64,000 nt of DNA from an uncultured SAR86 cluster bacterium (lineage in GTDB: Bacteria; Pseudomonadota; Gammaproteobacteria; Magnimaribacterales; AG-339-G14). The notes beneath the pieces are model-generated. The model did no database searches. It had not been told where the DNA came from and saw only the letters and a program-made list of their open reading frames with translations. The translations under genes were made by a program, and so were the position numbers. Positions 4,095-10,970 of the stretch are shown piece after piece (positions within the stretch are counted from its first letter, which is position 1; each line of letters begins with the position of its first letter). The stretch spans positions 13,180 through 77,179 of the forward strand of contig CABXSA010000001.1 in assembly GCA_902514765.1 (NCBI GenBank), given 5' to 3'.

Positions 4095-4211
4095 ATGGAA
4101 AATCCTACATTCTTGGCCAACGTATTCTTCTTTACGTTCTCATTTGTGTGGTTTATCTTTGTAGCCGTCGGAAGTCATATGTTCCGAAGGTATTACAAAG
4201 ATAAAAAATGA
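4095..4211 (+). CDS. candidate 38-aa single-TM small protein, stop overlapping the glk start (ATGA)
   Basis: ATG ORF MENPTFLANVFFFTFSFVWFIFVAVGSHMFRRYYKDKK. Its TGA overlaps the glk ATG at 4208. No clear SD. Too short for the ORF track. Confidence 0.25.
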   Translation: MENPTFLANVFFFTFSFVWFIFVAVGSHMFRRYYKDKK

Positions 4212-5119
4212 AAAACGCACTTCTAATTGATCTTGGTGGAACAAATATTAGATATGCATCTTTCATAGAAAATACCTTATCCAGAATATCAAAAGAAAAA
4301 ATTTCTGATAAAGATTTCATTGCTTTTCTTACAAAATTATTAGAAAAAGAAAAGAATGAAATTGATTATTTAGTTATCGCTGCAGCTGGTCCTAATAATC
4401 AGGATTCTATAAATCTCACGAATAGAGATTTGTTAATTGATGCCAACGAAATAAAAACTAAGCTTAACGTAAAAGACTGCTTACTCTTAAATGATTGGGA
4501 AGCTGTAGCTCAGTCTTTGAGTGAAATAAATAAGGAATGTTTTTTGCCCATTAAAAGAGGAGCTGCCTCTAACGAGAATATTTTGTTAATAGGTCCAGGA
4601 ACTGGTCTGGGAGTGACACTAATTATTAACGGTCGAATTATTCCTACTGAATATGGAAATATTTTAAGTTCGACAAAAGTCATGTTAAAAAATTTTGGTA
4701 TAGAAAATAGAAGTGAATTTAACTCTCTCGAAAATATTTTGAGCGGACCTGGAATTCAAAGACTCTACGAAGCAAAATTTAATCAAAAAATTACTTCTGA
4801 AGAAATAATAAGCTTTGCTTTGAAAGGTAAGGATGAAGAGCTTTTTATAATAGATAATTTTCTTAAGACTCTTATCTCAATTATCAATGATTTGGTTTTA
4901 TCATTTTCATGTGAAAGAGTAATTTTTGGAGGATCAATTTTGAATTCACTTAAGCCAATTTTGTTAGCCGACAAAACTCTCAAGAATTTTATCTCTGAAA
5001 TGAATCCGAAATATTCACGCTTGATAGAAAAGGTGCAGGTCGACCTGCTTACCGAGATCGAGCCAGGAATTTTAGGTTGTTTAGCTTATTTAAAAACCCA
5101 AATACATCCTAACTCTTAG
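4208..5119 (+). CDS. glk: glucokinase
   Basis: LLIDLGGTNIRYA phosphate-1 motif and GPGTGLGV. The size is close to bacterial Glk. Confidence 0.7.
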   Translation: MKNALLIDLGGTNIRYASFIENTLSRISKEKISDKDFIAFLTKLLEKEKNEIDYLVIAAAGPNNQDSINLTNRDLLIDANEIKTKLNVKDCLLLNDWEAVAQSLSEINKECFLPIKRGAASNENILLIGPGTGLGVTLIINGRIIPTEYGNILSSTKVMLKNFGIENRSEFNSLENILSGPGIQRLYEAKFNQKITSEEIISFALKGKDEELFIIDNFLKTLISIINDLVLSFSCERVIFGGSILNSLKPILLADKTLKNFISEMNPKYSRLIEKVQVDLLTEIEPGILGCLAYLKTQIHPNS

Positions 5120-5909
5120 GAACTTCTGCTGAAATATAGTACCTGGGCTCTTGGCAATTTGAGATCATATTCCAATTATTTTCAACTTCAGGATTAAGCT
5201 TTTGCCACTCAGCATCAAAAGCCAGCCTTGCCTCTTCAGATTGATAAAAATTTCCCCAAAAGAAGTCTACTTCTTCCGATTCGTAGTCGGGACCTAAAAT
5301 GACGTAACTAAAAGGCCCAGGAAGGGAATTAGTGTTTTCTAAAAACATCTCTAGTTGGTCGATTACTTCCCTTAAATCAGCTCCTTTTTTTCCCTCCTTA
5401 TACAGGCATTGATAATATTCAGAAACAAAACTGCTAGATTCAAACTCGCCTAGAGTATCGTTTGCCCTTGCAATGTAAGCATCAAAAGAAAATTTCTTAT
5501 CTCCATCACACGAAAGGATATCTGCCGTGTTTTCTGACCAAGCTGTAACATTTTCATTTGAATTCCAGTTTTCCCATGCAGCTTCTGCATCAGCCTTTGT
5601 ATTCCAAATCAATTGCCAAAAGCCGTCTTGTTCATCATCGGGTAATCTTTCAACATGTTGAATTCCATAAGCAGAAACCAATGGTGAATTAACTTCTACC
5701 AGCAAGTCCTGCCACTGAGGCAAAACGTTATTTCTAAAATTTTCAGCTGTATAGTAAACCCCCTCCTGACAAGGAACATATTCCATATAGAACATTTGAG
5801 GATATGCGTCAGAACCAAGATTAGAAAATGAAACTTCAATTTCATCTCCACTTGAACTGCAAGCAAGCATTGTTAAAAGAAGAGAAAAAGTTAAAACTAA
5901 ATTTTTCAT
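5109..5909 (-). CDS. lipoprotein of unknown function with two internally duplicated ~100-aa halves
   Basis: Lipobox LLTMLAC. Halves: EYVPC...FWQLIWNTKADAEAAWENW...ILSC versus EYYQC...FFWGNFYQSEEARLAFDAEW...ISNC. Lies 3 nt downstream of 5913..6662. Confidence 0.6.
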   Translation of the reverse strand: MKNLVLTFSLLLTMLACSSSGDEIEVSFSNLGSDAYPQMFYMEYVPCQEGVYYTAENFRNNVLPQWQDLLVEVNSPLVSAYGIQHVERLPDDEQDGFWQLIWNTKADAEAAWENWNSNENVTAWSENTADILSCDGDKKFSFDAYIARANDTLGEFESSSFVSEYYQCLYKEGKKGADLREVIDQLEMFLENTNSLPGPFSYVILGPDYESEEVDFFWGNFYQSEEARLAFDAEWQKLNPEVENNWNMISNCQEPRYYISAEVPKS

Positions 5910-5912
5910 ATT

Positions 5913-6662
5913 TTATTCAACAAAATCCTGAAGAGTTAGAGCTGAATCATAGACCCTGATATTTCTAACTATTTCTCTTTCATGCCACTCGGCTAATTTA
6001 TCCATTTTTTTATCAAAAGGGGAAACTCCTTGGTCTCTTGAGGCTGAGTCTTCCCAAGCTTCCATTTCAGCTAAAGATTCATAACCTACTGTAAAGAGAT
6101 GAGTTTGCATACCGCCTCCAGCCGTTCTCTCGGATAATCCAAATTGTCCTGGAAATGAATCTTGAATATCTTCATTCAGTTCTTCTGTAGCCTCTAAGAT
6201 GTCCTGCACATTTGATGGTTTTGTTCTGAACGGATAAACAGCCCAAACTGTATCTTTGTTAGAAGGTGTTCCATACGTTTTAATAAATGTATTTATACGA
6301 CTTCCTTTGCTTTTTGAATTTGCATTCAAAACAGAAAAATACATAGAAACCTCTTGATTATTTGGATCGCTAAGTTTTGCCATCCAAATTTCATGTTCTG
6401 CAAGACTAGGTTGCAGCACAGCAAATGAGTGAGTCTCCTCAACTTTGCCACTCGCAATATATGCATTTAAATGCAAAGAACCTTTGAAATTATTTTTCAC
6501 AAAATCTGATGACATAAATTTATCTGTTGCAGCTACAATCTTTGCAGCATCTTGAGGACTATCTACTTTAATTAAATATTCTATCCAAGTAGGCGATGCA
6601 AAACTTAAAGAAGAAGCAAGAAACATCGATATAAAAAAAATTTTTTTCATTTTTCTCTCCAT
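5913..6662 (-). CDS. secreted protein of unknown function with two internally duplicated halves
   Basis: Signal peptide MKKIFFISMFLASSLSFA. Repeat THSFAVLQPSLAEHEIWMAKL versus THLFTVGYESLAEMEAWEDSA. GGAGA SD. Confidence 0.6.
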   Translation of the reverse strand: MERKMKKIFFISMFLASSLSFASPTWIEYLIKVDSPQDAAKIVAATDKFMSSDFVKNNFKGSLHLNAYIASGKVEETHSFAVLQPSLAEHEIWMAKLSDPNNQEVSMYFSVLNANSKSKGSRINTFIKTYGTPSNKDTVWAVYPFRTKPSNVQDILEATEELNEDIQDSFPGQFGLSERTAGGGMQTHLFTVGYESLAEMEAWEDSASRDQGVSPFDKKMDKLAEWHEREIVRNIRVYDSALTLQDFVE

Positions 6663-6702: not shown

Positions 6703-7218
6703 GTGATAGCTAGGTTAATTGTTTTAGTTCTACTCACATCATGTGCGTCAGGCTTTGTTGTCAAAGTAGACACAGATGATTCTTTTTCTGCTGCAAAATA
6801 TAAAGATTTTCAAATTTTTATGCCTGATCCTTTCAGAGTTGAATCTGATGAAGAAGAAAATCCTATTAGAATAAATAGAATTGCAAAAGCCTTAGCTTCT
6901 TCTCTAGTTCAACTTGGATTGGACCAGAATGATAAATCCCCTTTGAAGATAAGCTTTTCTGTAAAAGAAAAGGAAAGATACAAACAAATAAATTCTTCTC
7001 ATTTTTTCTATGGATTTCGCAATGATCCTTTTTCTTATAGATTTTATGCAAATGATTTCCCGCCGATAAACTATTTGTCTGTGAAATTTTTTGATCAAGA
7101 TTTAAATAGAGTTGTTTGGTATGCAAATATGAGGATTAACTCAACTTCTCTTGATGATCAAAACTTGGCTAATGAAATTATTGCTCAAATGCTTTCGAAA
7201 TATCCTGGGAGTTCATAA
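6703..7218 (+). CDS. lipoprotein, DUF4136-like
   Basis: GTG start. Lipobox LLTSCASG followed by a V.VDTDDSF...YKDF pattern that I associate with DUF4136. The family call is from memory. Confidence 0.5.
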   Translation: MIARLIVLVLLTSCASGFVVKVDTDDSFSAAKYKDFQIFMPDPFRVESDEEENPIRINRIAKALASSLVQLGLDQNDKSPLKISFSVKEKERYKQINSSHFFYGFRNDPFSYRFYANDFPPINYLSVKFFDQDLNRVVWYANMRINSTSLDDQNLANEIIAQMLSKYPGSS

Positions 7219-10283: not shown

Positions 10284-10970
10284 CTATCTCGCGTAATTGA
10301 CTTCGCAATTCATGATAAATCCTCTTTTCAAATATCTTAATTTTTGAATTTGATTGGTAAGACTTTGTCCCCAATTTTCATTTCTGCTATCTAAAAAGGC
10401 TCCTAATCTTTGTGGTGTGGGTCCTTGAATAACAACCATCATCTGGCCGGTGTAATCTCCTGTATTAATCTGATATGCCTCCAGAGTTATATCCTCAAAA
10501 CCATTGGCCTGTGCTAAAGCTTGGTACTCAGATATTGCATTTAAATATGCGGCAGGATTTTTGGTTTTTACGTTTATATTATAGTTCGCAAAAGTTTGTC
10601 CTGTTTCGAATGAGCCTGAAGCTTCTGTTAAAACTGAATAATGGTCTACCTCTCTTATTGTTCTTTTACTGGCTATTTTTGAAATTTCTCTAATGTAAAC
10701 AGGATCTACTGTGTTACCGCCGATAGAGTCAGCATGATTTTCAAATAGAGACCAGTAATACATATCTCCAAATTCTTCTGCGCCATAACCTGGCTGGCAA
10801 ACGCCTGAAGATACTACGTTGTTAATTTCTGCAAGAGCTTTTCCACTTCCTCTAGCCCATTCCATATATGCAACTGGATCAGATGTATTAATTGTAAACA
10901 CAGACATTGCAGGTGCTGCAAATCCTACGCCACTGATGGCGAGAATAGCGCTTAAAAATATTTTTTTCAT
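10284..10970 (-). CDS. secreted protein of unknown function, two-half architecture like 5913..6662
   Basis: Signal peptide MKKIFLSAILAISGVGFAAPA. Halves begin FTINTSDPVAYMEWARGSGKALAE and NINVKTKNPAAYLNAISEYQALAQ. GGAGA SD. Confidence 0.55.
   Translation of the reverse strand: MKKIFLSAILAISGVGFAAPAMSVFTINTSDPVAYMEWARGSGKALAEINNVVSSGVCQPGYGAEEFGDMYYWSLFENHADSIGGNTVDPVYIREISKIASKRTIREVDHYSVLTEASGSFETGQTFANYNINVKTKNPAAYLNAISEYQALAQANGFEDITLEAYQINTGDYTGQMMVVIQGPTPQRLGAFLDSRNENWGQSLTNQIQKLRYLKRGFIMNCEVNYAR

Follow-up and report, generated by a model that had tools for sequence, protein, structure and literature searches.

The window analysed here is a 64,000-nt stretch of an uncultured SAR86 cluster bacterium (contig CABXSA010000001.1), and positions 5109-6650 of its minus strand form a two-gene unit in this SAR86 (Magnimaribacterales) genome. 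The first gene of the unit, here called B, encodes a predicted secreted protein, and the second, A, a predicted lipoprotein. In both, a single mature chain comprises two homologous ferredoxin-like modules, each ~105-115 aa long, an architecture that corresponds in B, and probably in A, to the dimeric alpha+beta barrel (DABB) in fused form. The fold is familiar, and the family is new, uncharacterised, and expanded in SAR86. As the best overall explanation, we propose an exported tandem-DABB pair that binds small molecules or acts as a cofactor-independent catalyst, a proposal that we hold at slightly less than an even chance. The two genes and their predicted export signals are as follows.

5913-6662, minus strand: gene B, predicted secreted tandem-DABB protein (open reading frame [ORF] of 249 aa; probable start at M5, position 6650, giving 245 aa)
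6597-6650, minus strand: predicted Sec (signal peptidase I) signal peptide of B, residues 5-22, MKKIFFISMFLASSLSFA, then SPTW, read from the sequence
5109-5909, minus strand: gene A, predicted lipoprotein with a duplicated Cys-pair module (ORF of 266 aa)
5859-5909, minus strand: predicted lipoprotein signal peptide of A (residues 1-16) and lipobox Cys17 (M-L-A-C), read from the sequence

An earlier reading of the DNA, made from the sequence only, had described these two ORFs as adjacent genes on one strand, 3 nt apart; its coordinates, shared strand, and spacing are all correct, and the strand, which it had left unstated, is the minus strand. In the ORF reading, B ends with its stop codon at 5913-5915 and A starts with its ATG at 5907-5909, leaving the gap of 3 nt. 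The ORF of B opens at 6662 with MERK, and its N-terminus reads MERKMKKIFFISMFLASSLSFA, followed by SPTW after the predicted cleavage. All database homologues of B share the start at M5, and the sequence GGAG lies just 5' of the M5 ATG, so that the true start is probably at 6650, for a protein of 245 aa.

Both proteins carry predicted export signals. The leader of B appears to be a standard Sec signal peptide rather than a Tat signal: its n-region, h-region, and small residues at -3/-1 recur in all 71 divergent relatives of B, with A20 and A22 being the majority residues. The signal peptide assigned to B by the sequence-only reading is upheld. Protein A opens with the leader MKNLVLTFSLLLTMLA, directly followed by C17 and three serines. 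This N-terminus has the n-region, the h-region, and a lipobox ending in [A/G/S]-Cys that characterize bacterial lipoproteins, and it agrees with the PROSITE pattern PS51257. Since [A/S]-Cys follows the hydrophobic stretch in every member of the A family, A is a predicted lipoprotein, and the lipobox reported earlier, with its Cys17, is kept across the family. In Escherichia coli, a Ser at +2 directs a lipoprotein to the outer membrane; by this rule, the +2 Ser of A would send it there.

The mature part of each protein divides into two modules.

6258-6593, minus strand: B module 1, residues 24-135 (AlphaFold2 elements beta1-alpha1-beta2-beta3-alpha2-alpha3-beta4; aligned with module 2 by hhalign)
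5916-6257, minus strand: B module 2, residues 136-249 (same order of elements; aligned with module 1 by hhalign; weak ABM match at residues 145-207, E 0.1)
5490-5804, minus strand: A module 1, residues 36-140, holding C47, C134, and the invariant D95 and W98 (from hhalign register and conservation; low-confidence AlphaFold2 model with a fitting order of elements)
5112-5489, minus strand: A module 2, residues 141-266, holding C168, C252, and D215 (AlphaFold2 pLDDT 70-88; Foldseek matches to 2IFX, 8S4E, 3BGU, SnoaB, and 2PGC; conservation)

The internal duplication of B, which the sequence-only reading had claimed along with that of A, is evident from a single sequence. Aligned with each other by Smith-Waterman, the two halves score 74, compared with 25.4 +/- 4.2 for shuffled sequences (z = 11.5), and none of 500 shuffles equalled this score. 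In profile-profile comparison by hhalign, the halves match at P = 4.9e-10 with the SAR86 alignment and at P = 4.5e-28 (99.8%) over 102 columns with the 71 divergent relatives. The core of this alignment is the same motif pair that was quoted originally, THSFAVLQPSLAEHEIW against THLFTVGYESLAEMEAW.

The duplication in A emerged from family alignments. It might be argued that the repeats are similar by chance or through the biased composition of an AT-rich genome, or that the ORFs are not genes at all, and the pairwise alignment of the halves of A taken alone gives some room for this, as it lacks significance (z = 1.5-2.4; score equalled or exceeded by 93 of 1000 shuffles). Comparison of the A-family halves by hhalign gave P = 0.006 over 95 columns, and after the remote relatives of A from other SAR86 genomes, here termed D paralogs, had been added to bring the family to 62 sequences, P = 3.3e-16 (98.7%). 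The register, in which EYVPC pairs with EYYQC, DGFWQ with DFFWG, and ILSC with ISNC, is the one proposed from the sequence. The Cys pair noted in each half also held up: Cys 47, 134, 168, and 252 are kept in 61-62 of the 62 A and D sequences, among which D95, D215, E43, W66, and W98 are invariant or nearly so. With these profile-profile P-values for both families, a confident two-module model of B, dozens to hundreds of conserved full-length homologues, and the conserved Cys columns, an origin of the repeats in chance or bias is refuted, and we leave it practically no probability.

Structural models place the modules in the DABB fold. AlphaFold2 modelled B with a predicted local distance difference test score (pLDDT) of 83.7 and a predicted template modelling score (pTM) of 0.77, the elements running beta-alpha-beta-beta-alpha-alpha-beta twice. 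In a Foldseek search of the PDB, the top match was 2PGC (E 1.5e-11, template modelling [TM] scores 0.71/0.84, root-mean-square deviation [rmsd] 2.8 A, 220 columns), followed by the fused ABM-type proteins 3MCS, 3F44 (a "putative monooxygenase"), 5F9P, and PenE, and then, at lower TM scores, by Cld, HemQ, DyP, and SOR. B aligns over its full length with the solved tandem barrels 2PGC, 3MCS, 3F44, 5F9P, and 9KDP, in 218-244 columns. The model of A has an overall pLDDT of 53.7; residues ~160-260 reach 70-88 and form the same beta-alpha-beta-beta-alpha-alpha-beta unit. Its Foldseek list consists mostly of single-domain DABB proteins (2IFX, 8S4E, 3BGU, SP1, PeHNL, and SnoaB), together with 2PGC, and the E-values are weak (7e-3 to 0.1); full-length matches have TM scores of only ~0.3-0.4. 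Both modules of B and the carboxyl-terminal module of A show the beta1-alpha1-beta2-beta3-alpha2-beta4 topology of a DABB module; the N-terminal half of A is tied to the fold because it is homologous to the carboxyl-terminal half by hhalign.

The suggestion that these are ABM/Dabb-like ferredoxin modules is thus borne out for B by the two-unit model, the full-length matches to tandem DABB proteins, and weak Pfam matches to barrel families; for A, it is partly borne out, by the carboxyl-terminal half, which is modelled and has DABB matches at weak E-values, and extends to the N-terminal half through homology. Foldseek comparison of AlphaFold models, which had been named as a check, led from B to tandem DABB proteins and from the carboxyl-terminal half of A to single-domain ones. 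A fused, exported pseudo-dimer had been considered plausible, and the two-module barrel of B and the predicted export signals on both proteins agree with this. Within A, C47 and C168 are located in beta1, and C134 and C252 at the start of beta4. Because beta1 and beta4 are neighbouring strands in the DABB fold, one disulfide per module is plausible, and each half of A probably has one beta1-beta4 bridge (C47-C134 and C168-C252).

Neither the Pfam nor the NCBIfam scan of A, B, the D paralogs, and a third exported paralog described below (C) gave a match above the curated cut-offs. As no model reaches its cut-off, the original statement that no named family could be recognised still holds, and the proteins were placed in no characterised family. 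Weak Pfam matches do occur among the 71 relatives of B: DUF6854 in 13, NIPSNAP in 10, DUF1330 in 3, ABM in 2-4, and Dabb in 2. All of these are alpha+beta-barrel families, and the matches are in this sense mutually consistent. ABM (PF03992) matches B itself at 13.2 bits (E 0.1; cut-off 23.1) and A not at all. For DUF6854 (PF21614), the best relative of B (P0206) reaches E 2e-4 and 18.3 bits against a cut-off of 27, and B of the window gives nothing at E <= 0.1. NIPSNAP (PF07978) likewise has no match in B of the window, and one distant relative (P0158) scores 25 bits, above the cut-off of 22.3. Both NIPSNAP, whose matches cover beta2-beta3-alpha2 of the 10 relatives, and DUF1330 (PF07045) are single-module families that have no known function in bacteria.

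The closest solved structure, 2PGC (JCVI_PEP_1096685590403), was determined by the structural genomics centre JCSG from the Global Ocean Sampling (GOS) metagenome, being among five structures that were solved for novel families of GOS (PMC2557142). Like B, it is a single-chain, two-module alpha+beta barrel from marine plankton. The sequence signal between them is weak (E 0.18 in a PDB-wide search, 2e-6 as a single comparison), identity is 13%, and in place of the T-H of B, the second module of 2PGC carries G-N-Y. A fragment of 2PGC scores 82 bits with DUF6854, which identifies DUF6854 as its family. We conclude that the window proteins form a sister family of DUF6854 within the DABB superfamily, one that is new, unnamed, and part of no characterised family. 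As 2PGC has no assigned function, the match transfers none to B. The PDB entry holds five chains of the same sequence; the barrels of Cld and HemQ are pentamers.

Several other known systems share part of this architecture. The fused ABM-type oxygenases (3MCS, FN1347; 3F44; the anthrone-oxidase-like 5F9P; PenE, 9KDP) are two-module single chains like B, which they match with query TM scores (TMq) of 0.53-0.60 and E-values of 1e-9 to 1e-7. These fused ABM-type proteins are known as cytoplasmic enzymes of secondary metabolism; A and B, in contrast, carry export signals, and no ABM catalytic residues were identified in them. Cld, HemQ, DyP-EfeB, and sulfur oxygenase reductase (SOR) also consist of two fused ferredoxin-like domains, and some are exported, but at TM scores of ~0.46-0.60 their rmsd to B is 5-9 A and they show no sequence match. 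The single-domain barrels of the Dabb and methylmuconolactone isomerase type (2IFX, 8S4E, 3BGU, SP1, PeHNL, SnoaB) resemble the carboxyl-terminal half of A (target TM scores [TMt] of 0.5-0.7 over ~105-115 columns), whereas in A itself two modules are fused, each with its invariant Cys pair; A also has a predicted lipid anchor and no Pfam match. PDB sequence searches with the A-family profile, C, and D returned chance-level matches only. A match of the broad B profile to an arabinofuranosidase (E 0.004) was judged spurious, since it was partial and the enzyme is absent from the structural matches of B. In the literature on 2PGC, DUF6854, the SAR86 isolate, and periplasmic ATCUN proteins, we found no functional study of this family.

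Searched exhaustively with a profile, 1.84 billion representative sequences yielded only 179 clusters (50% identity) at E <= 1e-3. All 76 full-length representatives of this B superfamily (215-302 aa, mostly ~225-255 aa) open with a hydrophobic leader, and we conclude that the superfamily is a real family under constraint. Those whose names were looked up are hypothetical proteins of marine Gammaproteobacteria/Pseudomonadales and of one Saprospiraceae metagenome-assembled genome (MAG). Among close relatives, there are 90 clusters for B and 27-34 for A, all unnamed or called "hypothetical protein" and from public assemblies; where sample sources of the A and B homologues are named, they are marine (Tara). 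When the A family was taken through a second profile search, by a method that relies on shared exact words, neither D nor any other distant relative was recovered.

SAR86 are among the most abundant bacterioplankton groups. Scanning a single genome for each species, we found 26 loci, nearly all of them titled SAR86 and including the cultured strain HIMB1674, a first SAR86 isolate (PMC11582366), whose array reads C-B-D-D (L030). Wherever the contig continues, the gene directly after B is A or a D paralog, with a B-A gap of 1-3 nt in most genomes of the window's clade and a B-D gap of -4 to 38 nt. This strict adjacency suggests that B acts with A or D, possibly as a complex. A further member of these arrays is also found in the window.

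10284-10970, minus strand: gene C, third predicted exported paralog (228 aa, signal peptide, no Pfam match; from hhalign against the B superfamily and gene order)

In other SAR86 clades, C is directly upstream of B, and in the window's clade it lies ~4 kb away. The repeat in C is weaker, its own halves aligning at P = 1.8e-4 by hhalign. Patterns such as D-D-C-B-D and B-D-D-D occur, with up to five paralogs in a row, and we conclude that the family has been expanded in SAR86 into arrays that can be written as [D]n-C-B-[A or D]n. A and D are linked by phmmer (E 1e-4 to 6e-8), and the C family matches the B superfamily in hhalign with 95.8% probability (P = 7.7e-9); three representatives (P0253, P0254, and P0264) match the B profile as well as the C profile. 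Direct sequence links between A and B and between B and C were not significant with narrow alignments and became detectable only with broad ones. At the level of sequence profiles, B and C are homologous members of one divergent group of predicted exported tandem-DABB proteins, of which A is probably a more remote member. Because the streamlined genomes of SAR86 keep 3-6 paralogs side by side, we argue that the family has a real envelope function, as yet unnamed in databases.

Some loci depart from this pattern. In two of them, the gene at the usual C position (L022:1640-2353 and L029:918-1631) has its match in B (E 1e-8 and 4e-8), not in C, and may be intermediate between the two families. 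The second of these loci, from MAG CM1_5m.P123, also contains a B homologue split into two overlapping ORFs (L029:5977-6742 and L029:6744-7319) and a truncated A homologue, which reflect a frameshift or pseudogene, or else an error of the assembly. In another lineage, a B relative of 254 aa (P0286) is preceded by two unannotated genes on the same strand (240 and 247 aa; L037/L038:3147-5765), a row that looks like an independent array. Two short contigs, L019 (CAXFAI010000048.1, binned as Flavobacteriales) and L026 (JAKUNG010000077.1, binned as Terriglobia), carry B with A or C alongside; with 81% and 51% identity to SAR86 genes, these are probably SAR86 DNA introduced by contamination during binning.

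The strongest conservation in B marks a candidate functional site, repeated in the two modules.

6429-6434, minus strand: T77-H78, start of beta3 in B module 1 (codons ACT CAC; conservation in 71 relatives)
6099-6104, minus strand: T187-H188, start of beta3 in B module 2 (aligned with T77-H78 in the half-half alignment)

H78 is the only residue that is invariant in the 71 divergent relatives (71/71), followed by G72 (69/71) and T77 (66/71); in the second module, H188 is kept in 66/71 and T187 in 49/71. Together they form, in each of the two modules, a G-x4-T-H motif located at the beta2-beta3 hairpin and the beta3 start; this is the motif pair quoted by the sequence-only reading. When A and D were aligned with B by hhalign, D95 of A was placed on T77 and G96 on H78. 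Since D95 aligns with T77, the same spot on the hairpin holds a conserved polar residue in both families, with different chemistry.

We tentatively propose, with a confidence a shade below that in the overall explanation, that this hairpin is where small molecules are bound or converted without a cofactor. By analogy with ABM-type DABB enzymes, B and A may act as ligand-binding proteins or cofactor-independent catalysts; this role is suggested because the ABM-type oxygenases, some of them putative, are the top-ranked solved matches whose names imply an activity. Judging by their leaders, both proteins would act in the periplasm, with A tethered to a membrane by its lipid. The putative site would lie at the beta2-beta3 hairpin and beta3 start of each half, formed in B by G-x4-T-H and in A and D by an invariant Asp (D95 and D215), one position earlier and beside the Cys pair. 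The substrates could, as a guess, be hydrophobic or aromatic compounds of the type imported by SAR86.

The same residues can be read as serving fold stability only, with the barrels acting as a non-catalytic scaffold, adaptor, or chaperone in the envelope. This would suit the predicted lipoprotein nature of A and the DUF4136 lipoprotein gene that is divergent from B, and it would also suit the arrays of diverging paralogs, in which the putative site residues vary (His, Asp, or neither). However, if the role were purely structural, it would be unusual for a His to stay invariant at ~15-30% identity and to recur in each half, and no partner gene is conserved beyond the set of paralogs; we consider a non-catalytic role improbable.

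Alternatively, the proteins may be periplasmic metal or heme binders, such as metallochaperones, buffers, or metalloenzymes, with H78 and H188 of B and D95 and D215 of A as ligands. The invariance of H78 and near-invariance of H188 fit this idea, as does the presence of the heme and iron tandem barrels Cld, HemQ, DyP, and SOR among the structural matches of B (TM ~0.5-0.6). One A homologue also adjoins a HupE/UreJ-type gene, of a family of nickel/cobalt permeases, but this gene is convergent and the association was seen in one lineage only; metal-homeostasis genes did not recur in the neighbourhoods scanned. In Cld, HemQ, and DyP-EfeB, the proximal His is on a helix of the carboxyl-terminal domain, and the known heme-ligating His residues of alpha+beta barrels are on alpha1, alpha2, or, in siroheme decarboxylase, beta2 (PMC4835899); the conserved His of B, on the other hand, is at the start of beta3 in both modules, a position that agrees with no heme site known so far. 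The leader of B is, in addition, of the Sec and not the Tat type.

A second metal site has been considered in the D paralogs, whose predicted mature N-termini read Asp-Asp-His, an X-X-His sequence of the amino-terminal Cu(II)- and Ni(II)-binding (ATCUN) type. Such a motif, which binds Cu(II) or Ni(II), requires that the mature N-terminus be free and that its third residue be His. D-[D/G]-H directly after [A/S] at the predicted cleavage site is found in 20/25 D paralogs (including L005:6774-7532, L024:3733-4494, and L031:7523-8275), in 8/147 B-superfamily representatives (P0198, P0203, P0234, P0250, P0251, P0260, P0265, and P0270), and in 0/265 unrelated ORFs. If cleaved between [A/S] and DDH, the 20 D paralogs would thus expose an ATCUN motif, whereas A and B of the window lack one: A begins with Cys-Ser-Ser, its Cys being the predicted lipidated residue, and B with Ser-Pro-Thr-Trp. 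On balance, we regard metal or heme binding as unlikely, if less so than a purely structural role. A more specific version, in which the C-B-A/D arrays are an unrecognised periplasmic metal-handling or metal-dependent system, with Asp-Asp-His of D capturing Cu(II) or Ni(II), the His pair of B as a further site, and A as a membrane-anchored partner, seems to us improbable as well. If this were true, the DABB fold would be serving a new purpose, and this in a bacterium that ranks among the ocean's most abundant.

A number of observations weigh against the proposal of an exported tandem-DABB pair with a hairpin site. The N-terminal half of the A model is of low confidence (pLDDT 30-48), with an order of elements that is the same as in the carboxyl-terminal half. 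ABM, DUF6854, and NIPSNAP all stay under the Pfam cut-offs for the window proteins, and A with D matches the B superfamily with only 76.6% probability in hhalign (P = 2.2e-5, 139 collinear columns). Both C of the window and 2PGC are without the T-H motif, so that the site is not universal. Finally, the neighbourhoods in eight other lineages contain no conserved neighbour across lineages apart from paralogs; a beta-lactamase-family gene, a Peptidase_C14 gene, and an HSP20 gene were each seen twice, too rarely for interpretation. The neighbourhood data discriminate among none of the functional readings.

What the analysis provides is a fold for these proteins and a link from the family to the orphan structure 2PGC. 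The T-H/Asp site at the hairpin and, in the D paralogs, the Asp-Asp-His N-termini are handles for biochemistry. Should the function turn out to be ordinary ligand binding, the result would be a useful annotation rather than a discovery.

In the window, the genes that flank the unit give no hint of its function. A glucokinase gene (4208-5119, plus strand) converges on A, and their 3' ends overlap by 11 nt (5109-5119). No terminator-like site was seen between these two genes, and a scan of the region for promoters and terminators was uninformative. Further flanking genes encode AmtB, a DUF3429 membrane protein, and a GH5-like protein. On the other side, the DUF4136 lipoprotein gene (6703-7218, plus strand; E 9e-14; LTSC lipobox) is divergent from B at a distance of ~40-50 nt, and this neighbour was also detected in four close SAR86 genomes (L010, L012, L014, and L018).

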